Positions 29,405 to 50,168 of a stretch of 51,136 nt of DNA are shown one piece after another. The stretch is from an uncultured bacterium (GTDB taxonomy: Bacteria > Patescibacteriota > Minisyncoccia > Phycocordibacterales > GWA1-40-21), in NCBI GenBank assembly GCA_903831595.1, contig CAIKXY010000010.1, forward strand, positions 1 through 51,136, given 5' to 3'. Position 1 is the first letter of the stretch; each line of letters opens with the position of its first letter. The notes beneath the pieces were generated by a model. That model was not told the DNA's origin. It saw only the letters and a list, made by a program, of their open reading frames with translations, and searched no databases. The position numbers and the translations under genes are program-made.

Positions 29405-29896
29405 ATGATGAAAAAAAATCTAAAAAAAGGGTCAGGTCTAGTTGAGATATTAGTTGCTGTTTTTATTTTTTCTATAATTTTAGGTGCATTGATTAATGCT
29501 AGTAGTGCTTATTTTTCAGGCGCTGGAGTAAACTTATCCTCCACTAAGGCGGCATACCTTGCGGAAGAAGGTATTGAAGCGGTAAAAACAATTAGAGATT
29601 TTGGCTGGAATAATATAAGTGCTTTATCAGATAATACTGATTATTATTTGTATTTTGACACATCTTCATCAACAAATAATGTCTGGAAAGCCACGACAAC
29701 ACCGTCAATTATTGATTCTAATTTTATTAGAACTTTTAAAATTAATTCCGTATATAGAGACATAGACGGAAGAATAATTTTAAGTGGAGGGACTCTTGAT
29801 ATAAATACTAGAAAAGTTATTTCATCCGTTTCTTGGAAATCAAATAATTCTACAACAACAAAAAGCCTTTCGACTTATATAACAAATATTTTTTAA
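29405..29896 (+). CDS. pilin-like protein (minor pilin candidate)
   Basis: KKG|SGLVEILVAVFIFSIIL: a prepilin-like N-terminus with Glu+5. Confidence 0.65.
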   Translation: MMKKNLKKGSGLVEILVAVFIFSIILGALINASSAYFSGAGVNLSSTKAAYLAEEGIEAVKTIRDFGWNNISALSDNTDYYLYFDTSSSTNNVWKATTTPSIIDSNFIRTFKINSVYRDIDGRIILSGGTLDINTRKVISSVSWKSNNSTTTKSLSTYITNIF

Positions 29897-30414
29897 TGTT
29901 AAAAAAAATAAAACAACAAAAAATACAGGGATTCACGCTAGTAGAAATGATGATATACCTTGCACTCATGACTGTGATTGCTGTCGTTATTGTTCAGTCA
30001 ATAGTTGTTGTTCTGAAGTCAAATCGAAAAGGCTTTGCTGAAAGCAATCTTAGAAATACTGCCTATTCGGCTCTTGAAGGGATGGTTCGAGAGATACACG
30101 CCTCAGATAGTACTATTATTGCTAGTGGCAGTTTATTACAATTAAATCAAAGCAATCCTATTGCCAATGTCGTCCAATTTTCTACGTCATCTGACGCAAG
30201 ACTAAATATGTATGAGGGGGGGAGTACATCAACATTATCTTATTTTGGACCACTAATCTCAAAAGATGTGATTGTAAAAAATTTAATCTTTACAAATATA
30301 AATACTGGTAAATCACAAGCGGTAAGAATACAGATTAATTTAACAACGGCTGTTGATGGTCAAACAAAAAGTGAGTGGTTTTATGATACTGCCATACTAA
30401 AAGGGTCATACTAA
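29896..30414 (+). CDS. prepilin-type N-terminal cleavage/methylation domain protein (minor pilin candidate)
   Basis: KIQG|FTLVEMMIYLALMTVIAV. Confidence 0.75.
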   Translation: MLKKIKQQKIQGFTLVEMMIYLALMTVIAVVIVQSIVVVLKSNRKGFAESNLRNTAYSALEGMVREIHASDSTIIASGSLLQLNQSNPIANVVQFSTSSDARLNMYEGGSTSTLSYFGPLISKDVIVKNLIFTNINTGKSQAVRIQINLTTAVDGQTKSEWFYDTAILKGSY

Positions 30415-34440: not shown

Positions 34441-34848
34441 AGTATTAGTATAAAAATACATGAGCGATATTTTAAATTTTACAAATTTGATAGCTTACCA
34501 AAAAGCTCATACATTAGTACTTGAAATTTATAAAATTACCAGCAAATTTCCTAAAACTGAGCAATTCTGTTTGGTAAACCAGATAAGAAGAGCTGGAATT
34601 TCTGTTACGTCAAATATTGCCGAAGGTTTTGCCCGCATGACCGCCAAAGACAAAATTCATTTTTATGGAATGTCTCGCGGATCACTTTTAGAATTACAAA
34701 GTCAAATATTTATTGGAAAAGATTTAAATTATTTGTCAACAGAAGATTATAAAAATACTGAAGAAAAAATCACGGAGGTAAATAAATTACTTTTAGGTAT
34801 AATTAAATCAGCAAAAAATTACTAATACTAATACTTTATACTAATACT
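34441..34848. repeat. 14-bp perfect inverted repeat bracketing the four-helix-bundle gene
   Basis: agtattagtataaa (34441-34454) and tttatactaatact (34835-34848), embedded in AGTAT(A/T)AGTAT word repeats. Confidence 0.7.
34460..34825 (+). CDS. four-helix-bundle protein (23S rRNA intervening-sequence protein / Avd-like family)
   Basis: 121 aa. AYQKAHTLVLEIYKITSKFPKTEQFCLVNQIRRAGISVTSNIAEGFAR...FYGMSRGSLLELQSQ is the family signature. Confidence 0.85.
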   Translation: MSDILNFTNLIAYQKAHTLVLEIYKITSKFPKTEQFCLVNQIRRAGISVTSNIAEGFARMTAKDKIHFYGMSRGSLLELQSQIFIGKDLNYLSTEDYKNTEEKITEVNKLLLGIIKSAKNY

Positions 34849-35758: not shown

Positions 35759-35811
35759 ATAGTCATAGCCAAAAGCTCCTAATTTTTTTGGAAACTTTTG
35801 GCTATGACTAT
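35759..35811 (+). promoter_or_regulatory. 17-bp perfect hairpin in the 5' leader of the DGR-1 target gene
   Basis: atagtcatagccaaaag (35759-35775) pairs with cttttggctatgactat (35795-35811). Confidence 0.5.
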
Positions 35812-35877
35812 CAATATCCACGATACGTCAAGAGTAATTCAGCCTGTCTTATGACAGACAAAAGGGAGGATTTGACC

Positions 35878-36489
35878 ATGGATAACATGCTCAAAAAAGC
35901 ACTTCGCGATTATCGCGAACTGCGCGAACAGTTTGAAAACGTATTGTTAGGCGAAGAAAGCGAACTTTGGGAGAGAGAAGCGAGAAAGTTTCTCTCAAAA
36001 CGCCCCTGCTGGAATCAGAAAGAAAATAGCTACCTGAAGCTAATTTCTGATGGCAAAAAAGTTGTTATTGCTTCAACAGACGGCAAGGAAACTATCGCCA
36101 ATGCTCAGAAAATTTTTCCGAGCGGTATAGATTCTGATTTCAAAAACTGGAATCTCGATGTGCCGAGTACACCGACCAAGGAAACAAAAACGCAAGTTTT
36201 TGAGATGGTCAAGGACGGCATGTTCAAGGATATCTTCGGAAGTTTTGGAGAAAACTTGGACCGTCTGTGCTTCACGCAAAGCCAAATCATCTTTTTTGTG
36301 AAAAACCACGCTAAGTGGCTTCGCACTGGTGGCTATGGAACCTTCTTTCTCTTTAAAGTCGGGAAGGATTATTTCGTGGCGAACGTGTACTTGAACTCTG
36401 ATGGGCTTTACGTGTACGTGGATCGCTTCTCGTGTGGCTACGTCTGGTGTGCTGAGTACAGGCGTCGGATTGTTGTCCCACAACTGTAA
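35878..36489 (+). CDS. DGR-1 variable (target) protein
   Basis: The preferred start is ATG 35878, preceded by AAGGGAGGA. The ORF-track TTG 35788 lies inside the leader hairpin. The C-terminal approximately 38 codons are VR1. No signal peptide. Confidence 0.85.
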   Translation: MDNMLKKALRDYRELREQFENVLLGEESELWEREARKFLSKRPCWNQKENSYLKLISDGKKVVIASTDGKETIANAQKIFPSGIDSDFKNWNLDVPSTPTKETKTQVFEMVKDGMFKDIFGSFGENLDRLCFTQSQIIFFVKNHAKWLRTGGYGTFFLFKVGKDYFVANVYLNSDGLYVYVDRFSCGYVWCAEYRRRIVVPQL

Positions 36490-36496
36490 TTTTTTC
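36368..36496 (+). repeat. DGR-1 variable repeat (VR1) including IMH-like 3' end
   Basis: Ungapped alignment to TR1 (offset 458). In 36368-36479 there are 13 mismatches, all at TR adenines. Confidence 0.9.
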
Positions 36497-36531
36497 ACTT
36501 AGTTTTTTTGTCCCTTTGAAACTTGGACACT

Positions 36532-36825: not shown

Positions 36826-36954
36826 ATAATTTCGTGGCGAACGTGAACTTGAACTCTGATGGGCTTAACGTGAACGTGAATCGCTTCTCGAATGACAACG
36901 TCTGGAATGCTGAGAACAGGCATCGGATTGTTGTCCCGAAACTAAAATATTTTC
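36826..36954 (+). repeat. DGR-1 template repeat (TR1)
   Basis: Asn-codon-rich (AAC/AAT) invariant copy of VR1. It is translated as a spurious ORF in the track (MANVNLNSDGLNVNVNRFSNDNVWNAENRHRIVVP). Confidence 0.9.
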
Positions 36955-36980
36955 TCCCGCTTATTTGGCGGGAGTTTTTT
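36954..36980 (+). terminator. hairpin plus U-run immediately 3' of TR1
   Basis: ctcccgc-ttatttg-gcgggag followed by tttttt. The avd stop codon (complement of tta 36961-36963) lies in the loop. Confidence 0.55.
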
Positions 36981-37260
36981 GTTGTAAACCTTTTTTCCAT
37001 CCACCGAGCATTCTTCCAATTTCTTCTAATTTTTCAGACAACTCAATATATTTTTCATTTGGTATCAATTTACTTTCCCATGCAAGTTGGGAGAAGAATT
37101 TTAGAGTATCTAATTTTGTTATTGTTTTTCCTAGTAGTATAATCTTTGATTCAGGAGGTAAATATACTGATGCAAAACTAAATTCTAGAATATCTAAAAA
37201 TGAACTCTCTATCTTTTGTCCAATACCAAAGCGTTCAGTTTTAGGAAAATTTCTGTGCAA
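36961..37260 (-). CDS. avd: DGR accessory variability determinant (Avd-like four-helix-bundle protein), 5' end ambiguous
   Basis: FPKTERFGIGQKIE...KLDTLK...EIGRMLGGW resembles Avd/IVS four-helix-bundle proteins. The TTG start at 37260 truncates helix 1, and the frame stays open upstream to the G10 tract. ATG 37345 would be in frame if the tract were one base shorter. Confidence 0.8.
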   Translation of the reverse strand: MHRNFPKTERFGIGQKIESSFLDILEFSFASVYLPPESKIILLGKTITKLDTLKFFSQLAWESKLIPNEKYIELSEKLEEIGRMLGGWKKGLQQKTPAK

Positions 37261-37319
37261 ATTTAGCCAAAATTGATAAGCATCTTTTTCTTTTGATATT
37301 ACAACGGGCGATTTCTGTA

Positions 37320-37329
37320 GGGGGGGGGG
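37320..37329. repeat. G10 homopolymer between/within the avd 5' end and RT upstream region (DGR-1)
   Basis: Direct reading: ttctgta + G10 + tcac. Confidence 0.95.
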
Positions 37330-37355
37330 TCACTTTATAGTTCATATAATTTATT

Positions 37356-38339
37356 ATGGAAATTAATTTTAATACTTACGATACTATCATATCTCTAAAA
37401 AATATTCACGAAGCTTGGCGTGAATTTATTTCTGACAAAAGATATAAAAATGATGTTGCCGAATATGCGCTTGCTCTTTCAAATAATATATCTAACTTAC
37501 ACCATGATTTGAAAAATAAAACATATATTCATTTTGGATATAAAGCTTTTTCTATTAATGACCCAAAACCAAGAAATATTCATAAAGCAATTGTGCGTGA
37601 TCGATTATTACACCATGCGATTTATAGGATTCTTTACCCTTATTTTGATAAAAAATTCATACACGATTCATACTCATGTAGAAATTTTAAAGGCACACAT
37701 AAAGCATGTAATCGTTTTAGAGATTTTGCGAGAAAAGTATCAAAAAATCACAGTAGAACATGCTGGGTTTTAAAATGTGATATAAGAAAGTTTTTTGCTT
37801 CTATAGACCATCTTATTTTGCTGAATATTTTAAAAAGACATATTTTTGATGTTGATACTCTATGGCTTTTAGAAAAAGTCATAGAAAGTTTTAGTAGCAC
37901 TCAAAAAGGAAAAGGCTTGCCTCTTGGGAATCTGACATCACAACTTTTGGTAAATATTTATATGAACGAGTTTGACCAATATATAAAACATACTCTTAAA
38001 ATAAAATATTATATTCGATATGCCGATGATTTTTTGGTATTAAGTGATAAAAAAGAAGAGTTGAAATCTTTGCTCGTTTTAATAGATACATTTTTAAAAG
38101 AAAGGCTTGCTTTATTACTGCATCCAAATAAAGTATTTATAAAAACATTTGCTTCCGGGGTTGATTTTCTCGGTTGGGTGAATTTTTCTGACCATAGAGT
38201 TTTGAGGACAGCCACAAAAAGAAAAATGTTTAGAAAATTAAAGGAAAGTAACAAAAAAGAAACCATTCAGTCGTATTTGGGTATGTTAAAACATGGAAAT
38301 GGTTTTAAACTTAGAAATAGAGTAACCAATTTTTTGTAA
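37356..38339 (+). CDS. DGR-type reverse transcriptase
   Basis: 327 aa with RT motifs including LPLGNLTSQLLVNIYMNEFD (the DGR-typical SQ motif) and IRYADDFLVL (YxDD). Confidence 0.95.
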   Translation: MEINFNTYDTIISLKNIHEAWREFISDKRYKNDVAEYALALSNNISNLHHDLKNKTYIHFGYKAFSINDPKPRNIHKAIVRDRLLHHAIYRILYPYFDKKFIHDSYSCRNFKGTHKACNRFRDFARKVSKNHSRTCWVLKCDIRKFFASIDHLILLNILKRHIFDVDTLWLLEKVIESFSSTQKGKGLPLGNLTSQLLVNIYMNEFDQYIKHTLKIKYYIRYADDFLVLSDKKEELKSLLVLIDTFLKERLALLLHPNKVFIKTFASGVDFLGWVNFSDHRVLRTATKRKMFRKLKESNKKETIQSYLGMLKHGNGFKLRNRVTNFL

Positions 38340-47151: not shown

Positions 47152-48975
47152 ATGGAAAACCTCGACTTCCTCAAAAATAAATACAATCTACACAATACAG
47201 AAGAAGTAGAAAAAGCAGCAAAACGCACAGAAAAGCGCACTGGAGAAAAAGTGCCACAAAATCCAAAAGATCAGATACAAAACTACCTAGACAGATTCAC
47301 CGAAATTATTGAAAGAAAGGAACCAGGGAAAAGAGAAAGGGGAATAGAAGCTATAAAAAGTGTTATAGATGACAAGTACATTATTAAACCTGAAGAAATT
47401 CCAGAAAGCTATTATGAAAACCAAAGGCGAATCGCTCGTGAACAAGGCCATGGAGATGTTGAAATAACCGATGAGGCAAGAAATCAACTCAAAGAAGTCA
47501 TAATAAAAGATCAAAAAGATTCTCTAGACAACTGGATTGACTACCTATCATCAAAAGATGCCACATATCCAGACTGGCTCAAGTATTTTGCTATTAGAAA
47601 TCTTCTCGGAATGGGAGAATATGATAAAGAAAAGAAACAATTCACTAAAAGATCAAAAGGCACAGTAAAGCCATTCCCAGACATAAACAGAGAAGCATTA
47701 GCATATGTACTAGATGCAATAGAGAAGAAACATAAAGGAATACCAAACGATAAAGACCCAGAATTCCAGGCTCTTCTACGAGGAGAAAATTTTGCTAAAC
47801 TCTATGCATGGGCTATAGACAAAGCTACACCAGAATCGGAGAAAGGACTTACAAACATAAAGGGTGAATGGGTAAAGTATAGACAAGGCAAAGACCACAT
47901 GCCACTCGTAGAATCTTTGCAAGGTCATGGAACAGGATGGTGCACAGCAGGAGAGTCAACAGCAAAAGCTCAACTGGAAGGCGGTGACTTCTATGTATAT
48001 TATTCAGAAGATAAAAATGGAAAATCAAATGTTCCAAGAGCTGCTATTCGTATGCAAGGAAATGAAATAGGTGAAGTCAGAGGTATAGGAGCAGACCAAA
48101 ACCTAGACCCATACATTGGTGATGTAGTAAAAAAGAAACTTACAGAATTTCCAGATGGAGACAAATACAAAAAGAAAGAAGCTAATATGAAACTTCTTAC
48201 TCAAATAGATAACAAAACAAAACTAAAACAACCTCTTATAAAAGATGAACTCATTTTTCTATATGAAGTAAACACTGAAATCGAAGGCTTTGGATATCAA
48301 AGAGATCCTCGCATAAAAGAAATAATCGACCAAAGAAATCCAAAAGAAGATGCACCTATAGTTTTTGATTGTCAGCCAAATCAAATCGCATATTCTGAGA
48401 AAAAAATAAATAAAGATACAAAAGCTTATGTTGGACCTCTATTCAAGGGAATATTCCAAACAAACATTGACCATATAGGAACTTCTTTCCCAGAGGGAAT
48501 GTTGAAAAAGATGGAAGCTGAAATTGGTGGAAAAAATAAAAAAGAACTCGAGAAAGAACTAAAGGAAAATAAAGTTTGGATTTCGGATTATGCTAAAAGC
48601 ATGATGAACAATTCTGATTTCACTACATCAAAAAAATTAGAACAATTAAATCTCGCTCGTATCACTGTAAAATCTCTCGGTTTTCCAAATGGCGCCACAA
48701 CTGATGAAATATACAAAAAAGCGGAAGAACTTGGTTTAGAATTATGTCCAGCAGAAGTCGGTCCCCAGCTTCGTTTGCAGTATTTGGACCAGCCAAATGG
48801 AGAATATATTTTTATAGGAATGAAACAAATTTCTGACTCCGTTGGCTACCCGAGCGTGTTCAATGTGCTCCGCTACGACGATGGCAGGCTGGAGCTCGAC
48901 GGCCGCAGCGCTAAGCCTGACGATAGGTGGGGTGGCGGCCGCGGGTTTGTGTTCCGCATGCCTCGCAAGTCTTAG
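47152..48975 (+). CDS. DGR-2 variable (target) protein
   Basis: 607 aa with no signal peptide. The C-terminal approximately 47 codons are VR2. The last ~100 aa resemble the C-terminus of the DGR-1 target. Confidence 0.85.
   Translation: [607 protein letters not shown]
48829..48968 (+). repeat. DGR-2 variable repeat (VR2)
   Basis: Ungapped alignment to TR2 (offset 446). There are 22 mismatches, all at TR adenines. The invariant 3' block is gtttgtgttccgcatgcctcgcaa. Confidence 0.9.
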
Positions 48976-49185
48976 AACTTATCTCTTTTATAACTTAGCT
49001 CTAGCACTTAGATACTTAGAACTTTGTTCTTGAAAATTTTTTGATATAATAATTTTGGTAGTAGGTGAATATGCGAGAGATTACGATTTCTCGCTACCGA
49101 ATCCAGTATCCATAAGTTGAGAATGTTTGTGATTATGATTTCAAACAGAGGGCTTATGTAGACGCTTCAATAAAAATGAAGATAC

Positions 49186-49213: not shown

Positions 49214-49274
49214 GCCAAATTAGATTCAATCCCGAGAGCATTCAAGGGGTGGTGGTAAAGAAGATATTTTGCAC

Positions 49275-49414
49275 ATTTCTGACTCCGATGGCAACCCGAA
49301 CGTGTTCAATGTGAACCGCAACGACGATGGCAAGCTGAAGCTCAACGACAACAACGCTAAGCCTGACAATAGGTGGAATGACAACAACGAGTTTGTGTTC
49401 CGCATGCCTCGCAA
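49275..49414 (+). repeat. DGR-2 template repeat (TR2)
   Basis: AAC/AAT-rich copy of VR2, seen in the track as the spurious ORF ...SDSDGNPNVFNVNRNDDGKLKLNDNNAKPDNRWNDNNEFVFRMPR. Confidence 0.9.
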
Positions 49415-49426
49415 CTCTTTTCATTT

Positions 49427-49457
49427 CTCTCCCATTTATTTGGGAGAGTTTTGTTTT
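49427..49457 (+). terminator. hairpin plus U-run immediately 3' of TR2
   Basis: ctctccca-tttatt-tgggagag followed by ttttgtttt. It is homologous in position and shape to 36954-36980. Confidence 0.55.
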
Positions 49458-49775
49458 CCCCCACACCTTTCATTTTATCCTCTCAAATCATATAATGATG
49501 GTTATGTTTTATCTCTATATATTGAAAAGCACTAAGGATGATAATTTGTATATAGGCTCTACAAATGATTTGAGACGAAGACTTTCTGAACATAGTAATG
49601 GAAAAGTACGTTCAACAAAATCTCGTGTCCCATTTGAACTTAGATATTACGAATCATTTTTCAAAGAGATAGACGCAAGGAAAAGAGAGTTTTCGCTTAA
49701 AAAAGATGGTAAAGCACTCGGACAATTGAAAAGAAGAATTTCAGAAAGTCTTAAATAAAATGAAAGGTGTGGGGG
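49458..49775 (+). mobile_element. 318-bp TIR-bounded element encoding a small GIY-YIG protein, inserted in DGR-2
   Basis: 21-bp perfect terminal inverted repeats (49458-49478 cccccacacctttcattttat / 49755-49775). They are flanked by 9-bp direct repeats, ttttgtttt (49449-49457) and ttttgtctt (49776-49784). The element is absent at the homologous DGR-1 site. Confidence 0.75.
49495..49758 (+). CDS. GIY-YIG nuclease family protein (small UPF0213/YhbQ-like)
   Basis: MMVMFYLYILKS...NLYIGSTNDLRRRLSEH...YYESF...KREFSLKK shows GIY-YIG motif spacing. It is about 87 aa, and the stop codon lies within the right TIR. Confidence 0.8.
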   Translation: MMVMFYLYILKSTKDDNLYIGSTNDLRRRLSEHSNGKVRSTKSRVPFELRYYESFFKEIDARKREFSLKKDGKALGQLKRRISESLK

Positions 49776-50110
49776 TTTTGTCTTAATATCTGCCCATTCC
49801 AACCACCTAGCATTTTTCCAATTTCATCTAAATGGAGAGATAAAGCGATATACTTTTTATTATCCAAAGATTTTGTTTCCCACAAAACCATAAGCAAGAT
49901 TTTCAATGTGTCTAATTTTCTGATGGCAACAGATATATAAGTTCTTTTTTCTTCTTTTGGCAGGAAACTTGCTACAGAAATTGCTTCTATGATTTCTATA
50001 AATAATGTGTCAATTCTATTTCCTAGAGAATATCTATGTGGTTTGGGCAGAATTTGATAATATTCATACCAAAGAATATAAGCAGTTTTTACTTTCTGTA
50101 AAAGTGGCAA
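49751..50110 (-). CDS. avd: DGR accessory variability determinant (Avd-like), 5' end ambiguous
   Basis: Paralog of 36961..37260 (…RKLDTLKILL…EIGKMLGGW…). It has a TTG start in the track. The frame continues through the G9 tract, and upstream ATGs (50136, 50139, 50145) are out of frame by one base. Confidence 0.8.
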   Translation of the reverse strand: MPLLQKVKTAYILWYEYYQILPKPHRYSLGNRIDTLFIEIIEAISVASFLPKEEKRTYISVAIRKLDTLKILLMVLWETKSLDNKKYIALSLHLDEIGKMLGGWNGQILRQNPHTFHFI

Positions 50111-50123
50111 AAGTTTCTGTAGA

Positions 50124-50132
50124 GGGGGGGGG
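50124..50132. repeat. G9 homopolymer at the avd 5' end / RT upstream region (DGR-2)
   Basis: Direct reading: ttctgtaga + G9 + tcat. Confidence 0.95.
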
Positions 50133-50168
50133 TCATCATAGTCATGTTTTTTGTGTTGTAATTATATT

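Follow-up and report, generated by a model that had tools for sequence, protein, structure and literature searches.

We propose that a homopolymeric cytosine tract near the 5' end of avd, found in both DGRs of the contig analysed here and at the same codon positions in most of the related genomes surveyed, is a conserved simple-sequence ON/OFF contingency switch on Avd and hence on DGR mutagenesis. From the comparison of assembled sequences, we assign this reading a probability of roughly 0.6. The window, i.e. the whole contig of 51,136 nt, contains two DGRs whose avd genes are both out of frame with their start codons, one by a C too many and the other by a C too few.

Both DGRs are complete and of the TR-(avd)-RT type, with avd on the strand opposite the RT gene, a layout that corresponds to architecture B3 and accounts for 90% of CPR DGRs (Wu et al. 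2018, PMC5758913). In DGR-1, the RT gene (37356-38339, plus strand; RVT_1, E = 1.4e-25) encodes GNLTSQ and YADD motifs in its translation and is oriented divergently to avd-1, the start codons of the two genes being 10 bp apart. TR-1 (36826-36968, plus strand) aligns over 143 nt with VR-1 (36368-36510, plus strand), which forms the 3' end of the target gene (35788-36489), and 18 of the 25 mismatches in the local alignment, edges included, fall at TR adenines. DGR-2 comprises an RT gene divergent from avd-2 and running off the contig end (50169-51136, plus strand), TR-2 (49262-49438, plus strand), and VR-2 (48816-48992, plus strand) at the 3' end of its target gene (47152-48975); here, 24 of the 39 TR/VR mismatches lie at TR adenines, again in a local alignment that includes the edges. 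The features by which a DGR is recognized, namely an RT with GxxxSQ and YADD, an adenine-biased TR/VR pair, and a bAvd protein encoded on the opposite strand, are thus all present.

Directly after each TR lies a G+C-rich, terminator-like hairpin whose T-run is found on the TR strand. The first, detected on both strands at 36954-36974 with its T-run on the plus strand, is located between TR-1 and the 3' end of avd-1, and on the other strand it also constitutes that 3' end; the second follows TR-2 at 49427-49448. Because of this placement, the hairpins suggest that the TR RNA is a short separate transcript and is not co-transcribed with the RT. A third gene for a four-helix bundle was found 1 kb upstream of the DGR-1 target (34460-34825, plus strand). 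It belongs to the 23S rRNA intervening-sequence protein family PF05635 (E = 3e-37), its bAvd score is under the cut-off, and it has neither a homopolymer nor an adjacent RT.

The bAvd-family gene avd-1 (36961-37345, minus strand) is intact except for a frame break at a C10 homopolymer (37320-37329, minus strand; G10 on the plus strand), the proposed switch, which occupies codons 6-9. On the minus strand, the start codon ATG (37345-37343) is followed by AAC TAT AAA GTG A, the C10 tract (37329-37320), and TACAGAAATCG; the sequence downstream of the tract reads TACAGAAATCGCCCG. The sequence-only reading had this ATG, the first codon of the leader MNYKVT, offset by one base from the avd frame and had predicted that a C9 tract would restore a full-length Avd, and both points were borne out. 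As assembled, avd-1 has one C in excess, and its removal yields a product of 128 aa (MNYKVTPPPLQKSPVV..., beginning MNYKVTPPPLQKSPVVISKEKDAYQFWL) that matches Pfam bAvd PF22296 over residues 17-120 (E = 7e-13). The two frames through the tract give MNYKVTPPPLQK in Avd versus ...TPPPTEIAR in the out-of-frame peptide. The avd frame itself (ORF 36961-37260) remains open upstream through the C10 as far as a TGA immediately 5' of the tract (37330-37332, minus strand), and the only canonical in-frame start as assembled is a TTG (37258-37260, minus strand), from which a 99-aa product would be made.

Two simpler ways of opening avd-1 were rejected. A downstream start is contradicted by the absence of any ATG, GTG, or TTG in the avd-1 frame between the tract and TTG 37260, and by tract-less relatives, which begin 17-28 residues before Y24. 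A code with TGA as a sense codon is at odds with the dense intact ORFs under code 11, which is upheld by the stop usage in the window (TAA 30, TAG 7, TGA 2), and such a code would still provide no ATG before the TAA at 37353.

The consequences of the TTG start were evaluated on an AlphaFold model (pLDDT 92) of an in-frame homologue with 84% identity. This model is a four-helix bundle that superposes on the Bordetella phage Avd 4dwl (Foldseek, TM 0.79/0.88), and it likewise fits the Avd chains in 8ub7, a DGR ribonucleoprotein; a profile search of PDB sequences gave no significant match, but the fold search did find Avd. Helix 1 corresponds to residues 15-31 of Avd-1. A start at TTG 37260 falls on residue 30 and removes 15 of the 17 helix-1 residues, among the lost residues being the invariant K21, Y24, and W27, in line with the earlier claim that most of this helix would be missing. 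The PPP encoded by the tract lies in the non-helical N-terminal tail of the homologue model, where one proline more or fewer should be tolerated, judging from the predicted structure.

A corresponding tract is found in avd-2 (49751-50145, minus strand; bAvd, E = 1.2e-10), which has the leader MTMMT. Its C9 homopolymer (50124-50132, minus strand; G9 on the plus strand) is one C short as assembled: the minus strand reads ATG ACT ATG ATG A, C9 (50132-50124), then TCTACAGAAA, and C10 is needed to bring the ATGs at 50145, 50139, and 50136 into frame. The sequence-only reading had described a motif that recurs at DGR-2, out of frame in the opposite direction, and this holds, DGR-2 carrying TTTCTGTAGA-G9-TCA, which is that motif plus one extra A. 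An exact look-up of the 119-aa avd-2 ORF returned no match. The 3' end of avd-2 is altered by an insertion of ~318 nt (49458-49775) that replaces the last avd-2 residues, has 19-bp inverted repeats at its bounds (ccccacacctttcatttt / aaaatgaaaggtgtgggg), and encodes a GIY-YIG nuclease domain (Pfam, E = 3e-15). The insertion looks like a small mobile element and is absent from two related contigs (L167 and L168), in which the protein ends ...ILKQNSPK.

Runs of this kind are rare in the genomic background. The window has a G+C content of 33.5% and contains only three G/C runs of at least 7, of which the avd-1 and avd-2 tracts are the two longest; the remaining one, a G7 at 30216-30222, is located inside an intact ORF (29896-30414). 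CCC accounts for 36 of the 523 Pro codons in the window (6.9%) and for 18% across related loci, and no other window ORF of at least 150 aa encodes PPP. Among the other PPP tripeptides in long ORFs of related loci, 0/6 are encoded by C9.

A protein search recovered 345 homologues, almost all of them without a name or from MAGs of Parcubacteria, Moranbacteria, and Paceibacterota. Many of these begin M-x(1-15)-PPP, and others begin just past that point, as expected where gene callers met the frame break. Our DNA survey covered 80 GTDB species-representative genomes with this avd family (459 kb of loci), and a run of C6-C13 was found at the same avd 5' codon positions in 63 of them. With the two window loci included, the modal tract lengths are C9 (n = 25) and C10 (n = 21), flanked by C6 (n = 1), C7 (n = 2), and C8 (n = 7) on one side and C11 (n = 3), C12 (n = 4), and C13 (n = 2) on the other. 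G/C runs of at least 8 occur 60 times at the avd 5' site versus four times elsewhere in the 459 kb. This specificity of the run, together with the codon usage for PPP, indicates that the homopolymer is kept at the nucleotide level and not merely as a proline motif. In distant viral avd loci (30-42% identity), the tract is found in only 1 of 80, and a metagenome scan with a single protein yielded only two loci. Individual relatives show further homopolymers: L017 has no tract in avd but a C11 600 nt upstream (position 2403), and L032 has a second one, an A12 in avd helix 1 ~20-35 nt after its C12 tract, which breaks the frame.

The frame state was scored for 67 tract loci, comprising genome loci, the two metagenome loci, and the two window loci, with a locus regarded as in frame if an ATG at most 60 nt upstream is open to the tract and in the avd frame. 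The split into 24 loci in frame, 26 with one C too many (+1 needed), and 17 with one too few (-1 needed) is compatible with a uniform distribution (chi-square p = 0.37). The in-frame share agrees with one third (p = 0.70) and departs strongly from the 0.9 that would represent genes mostly in frame with occasional errors (p = 8e-27). A full-length, ATG-started ORF is present in all 12 relatives without any repeat (12/12) versus 23/64 tract loci (Fisher p = 2.7e-5). Pseudogenization of avd was ruled out by the intact gene bodies of the out-of-frame loci: all 42 assessable ones have 115-198 open codons past the tract, with a median of 119 compared to 118 in the in-frame loci.

The sequence-only reading had asked whether Avd N-termini are conserved across relatives, or whether orthologues start downstream of the tract. 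In-frame relatives do start M-x(1-15)-PPP, and those out of frame keep the orthologous ATG and leader instead of starting further downstream. Just upstream of the tract, all out-of-frame loci have an ATG that lies in another frame, and the leaders read from these ATGs (MTIK, MTFN, MNKxxHI, MTHTNKDH, MSQLNFH, and MNYKV) are orthologous to the in-frame leaders, a conservation that may come in part from the RT gene overlapping on the other strand. Three hallmarks of a contingency locus are found together at avd, namely a run of at least 8 within the ORF, an orthologous repeat of variable length, and a frame that toggles in an otherwise intact gene.

Tract length also varies between loci that are otherwise very similar. 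Nomurabacteria loci with near-identical flanks carry C7, C8, C9, C10, and C11, and the tract is almost the sole difference between two of the related loci, of which L027 has an out-of-frame C10 and L029 an in-frame C9. In three relatives (L033, L060, and L070), the repeats (GA)13, (GA)10, and (GA)6 are found at the tract position, ~3-40 nt upstream of the match start, leaving one locus out of frame and two in frame. All three fall within a subfamily (...RLIPVVLKLKD) that also includes the C-tract loci L061, L062, and L074 and in which both C9 and C10 are present. As one kind of simple repeat replaces another at a single site, the comparison argues that what selection keeps may be the instability of the repeat itself, and not a G-specific structure or a polyproline peptide. 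At one further locus (L067), a C6 is followed by TCTCTCTC.

In the mechanism that we favor, the poly-C run would be hypermutable; it is placed as such switches usually are, close to the start of the gene, and encodes part of the unstructured Avd N-terminal tail. Slipped-strand mispairing during replication would lengthen or shorten the run by one base, presumably at a high rate and reversibly within the population, and the body of avd would thereby move in and out of frame with its ATG, resulting in heritable, reversible phase variation. The DGR of the Bordetella phage cannot do without Avd, which has to bind the RT (Wu et al., PMC5758913), and by extension from that work the loss of full-length Avd would silence mutagenic retrohoming of the target. 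Under this mechanism, the contig consensus would represent an OFF state of both DGRs. The broader proposal, for which we see even chances, is that most CPR DGRs carry a contingency repeat in avd, either poly-C or (GA)n, which would make targeted hypermutation phase-variable, with most cells frozen and a stochastic minority ON. Such a second-order evolvability switch would be the first family-wide SSR phase variation described in CPR.

The sequence-only reading had left the choice between a phase-variable and a recoding switch. Its phase-variable part is supported by the variable length of the run, the random frame, and the existence of in-frame alleles, whereas a programmed frameshift or polyproline stall as the designed mechanism is not. 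Recoding as the main route to Avd is the strongest of the rival accounts, although in our view unlikely. It would mean that slippage by RNA polymerase, or by tRNA-Pro and the ribosome, gives a low yield of Avd from a tract of any length, so that the tract acts as an attenuator and its length in the DNA is nearly neutral. RNA polymerase is known to slip on long homopolymers, and tRNA-Pro readily shifts by +1 on CCC-C; a uniform split of frames over the 67 loci would be expected if the frame were irrelevant, and the intact ORFs of out-of-frame loci fit this account as well. The same is true of the clustering of tract lengths at 9-10 irrespective of frame, which suggests that length is constrained and not the ON state. 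However, known programmed frameshifts are fixed in direction, and because the direction is not conserved among the tract loci, where requirements for +1, -1, and no shift are about equally common, a designed frameshift is unsupported. Efficient slippage would also destroy the product of the 24 in-frame loci, the (GA)n repeats of the three relatives are a good substrate for DNA slippage but a poor slippage site for the ribosome or RNA polymerase, and the best-documented cases of RNA polymerase slippage involve A/T rather than C/G runs.

The structure of the sequence 3' of the tract bears on the same question. A fold of -6 kcal/mol or below is predicted for the 30 nt that directly follow the run in 37% of the tract loci, whereas control windows taken from the same genes reach this value in 6.5% of cases (Fisher p = 2e-11). 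The hairpin starts 0-3 nt after the run on the avd strand, and at least six unrelated stem sequences are found (e.g. GAGAATTACC/GGTAATTCTC, GAGAAGCACC/GGTGCTTCTC, GGAGCACC/GGTGCTCC, and AGCGCC/GGCGCT), the pairing being kept through changes on both arms (L012, L023, L027, L029, L030, L031, L034-L046, L058, L059, and L066). A slippery run followed by a hairpin has the geometry of a -1 frameshift stimulator and would thus suit recoding, but most relatives show a weak fold or none, as do the two window loci, at -0.5 and -2.1 kcal/mol. The hairpin is beyond what simple replication slippage explains; it could be a stimulator of slippage or frameshifting, or an RNA element in the RT sense. Alongside the contingency switch, the covarying hairpin may tune slippage in some lineages, and slippage may provide leaky expression from out-of-frame alleles.

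Among closely related assemblies, in-frame and out-of-frame alleles of the window genes co-occur. The C10 of avd-1 is included in an independent 8-kb MEGAHIT contig (L084) that is 100% identical to the window over 3,300 nt. Two short contigs from other assemblies (L166 and L081) instead have 'TGTGTGCGGT + C9' replacing 'A + C10' (positions 54-72 and 30-48, respectively, equivalent to window positions 37320-37331), an allele that is 8 nt longer, in frame, and encodes MNYKVCVRSPPLQK... of 130 aa. The first of these contigs shows 1 mismatch in 694 nt and an identical upstream flank of 53 nt, and the 10-nt block of the variant allele has no other copy in the window. A relative at 87% identity (L082) shares the ATGAACTATAAAGT(G/C)A leader and has a C11, which is again out of frame. 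For avd-2, the C10 protein MTMMTPPPLQK... (131 aa) is publicly present as P0123 on contig L165, where 710 nt compared with the window show 2 mismatches plus the extra C (flanks 99.7% identical), and the related avd-2 allele on L167 and L168 also has a C10. Because alleles in both frame states co-occur at such close range, these data, which represent assemblies and not reads, are suggestive of population heterogeneity at both avd genes. The variant contigs of about 700 nt could in principle be assembly by-products, and the C9 of the window avd-2 could be a consensus error, given the C10 in three other contigs.

It is improbable that the out-of-frame state in the window only reflects a mistake in consensus or assembly over a long homopolymer, with genes that are really in frame and no switching. 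Homopolymers of 9-10 are error-prone, and such an error would be consistent with the in-frame C10 of avd-2 on L165, L167, and L168 and with the scaffold gap at another relative (L019), where a run of N immediately follows the C12 tract. Yet the avd-1 C10 was reproduced independently in the MEGAHIT contig, and the rest of the 51-kb contig is dense in intact ORFs despite 18 A/T runs of 8. Moreover, the tract loci come from many different studies and assemblers, and 64% of them are out of frame versus 0/12 tract-less ones, which would need an error rate of ~65%, and errors account neither for the range of C6-C13 between species nor for the conservation of C9-C10 where CCC is a minority Pro codon.

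Equally doubtful is a role of the run as a cis-element for the divergent RT or for RNA-RNA pairing (promoter spacer, Shine-Dalgarno-like G-run, 5' UTR structure, or antisense pairing of the overlapping 5' ends) with an incidental effect on the avd frame: the avd and RT start codons are 4-56 nt apart, so that each promoter must lie inside the other gene, the G9 of the Nomurabacteria group is ~10 nt upstream of the RT ATG at a Shine-Dalgarno-like distance, and in a third of the loci the G-run on the RT-sense strand comes directly after a hairpin. A promoter-spacer or Shine-Dalgarno role is disfavored by the variable spacing between tract and RT (4-56 nt overall, with 26 and 36 nt for the two window loci), and promoter-like matches in consensus scans are no commoner than in shuffled sequence. 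Against a cis-element in general, (GA)n can stand in for the run, the tract is always at the same avd codon positions, and the incidental disabling of an essential partner in two thirds of the genomes would meet strong counter-selection.

CPR bacteria are the largest reservoir of DGRs. A repeat that puts an essential accessory gene out of frame in ~2/3 of the genomes would point to a regulatory principle, the stochastic and heritable gating of hypermutation, that is testable on existing metagenomic reads; the contingency switch predicts that VR diversity in a population follows the fraction of in-frame tracts. The tract would also account for avd being often annotated as truncated or missing in CPR DGRs, and it can guide the choice of start codon and tract length when these elements are reconstituted. 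In the searchable literature, we found nothing relevant that links DGRs or avd with a homopolymer, phase variation, or frameshifting, although Paul et al. 2017 may contain a passing mention, and Wu et al. make no mention of a homopolymer (PMC5758913). Whereas DGRs, the B3 architecture, and Avd are known, we could not find a precedent for the link of a conserved contingency repeat to targeted hypermutation across many CPR lineages.

Several known systems share parts of this arrangement. The elements resemble the DGR of Bordetella phage BPP-1 and those of the CPR B3 type in the bAvd fold, the RT with GxxxSQ and YADD, and the adenine-biased TR/VR pair, and the divergent avd is as in CPR B3; unlike the avd genes of the window, BPP-1 avd has no homopolymer. 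With the slippage sites of dnaX, prfB, and IS elements, the avd loci have in common a slippery homopolymer, followed in a third of the relatives by a stable hairpin, but they differ from these sites in having no conserved direction, in that one third need no shift, and in the lack of a stable hairpin at the window loci. Phase variation by homopolymers is well known from Campylobacter, Neisseria, Helicobacter, Bordetella, and others. Like the poly-G/C loci of Campylobacter jejuni, Neisseria, and Helicobacter, avd has a conserved, length-variable run of 8-13 nt near the 5' end of the ORF, the length of which toggles the frame, and out-of-frame alleles keep an intact ORF. In contrast to those loci, where surface, glycosylation, or restriction-modification genes are controlled, the target is the accessory subunit of a mutagenic retroelement, its hosts are CPR bacteria (Patescibacteria) that are uncultured, and the tract, known here from assembled sequences, is family-wide over many candidate phyla and not confined to one genus. 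Functional parallels may also be seen in switchable mutators (mutS/mutL alleles) and phasevarions (mod methyltransferases), in which a repeat likewise gives stochastic, heritable control of a diversity generator. There, the genome-wide mutation rate or methylation is affected, whereas the repeat in avd would control targeted, adenine-specific hypermutation of one VR.
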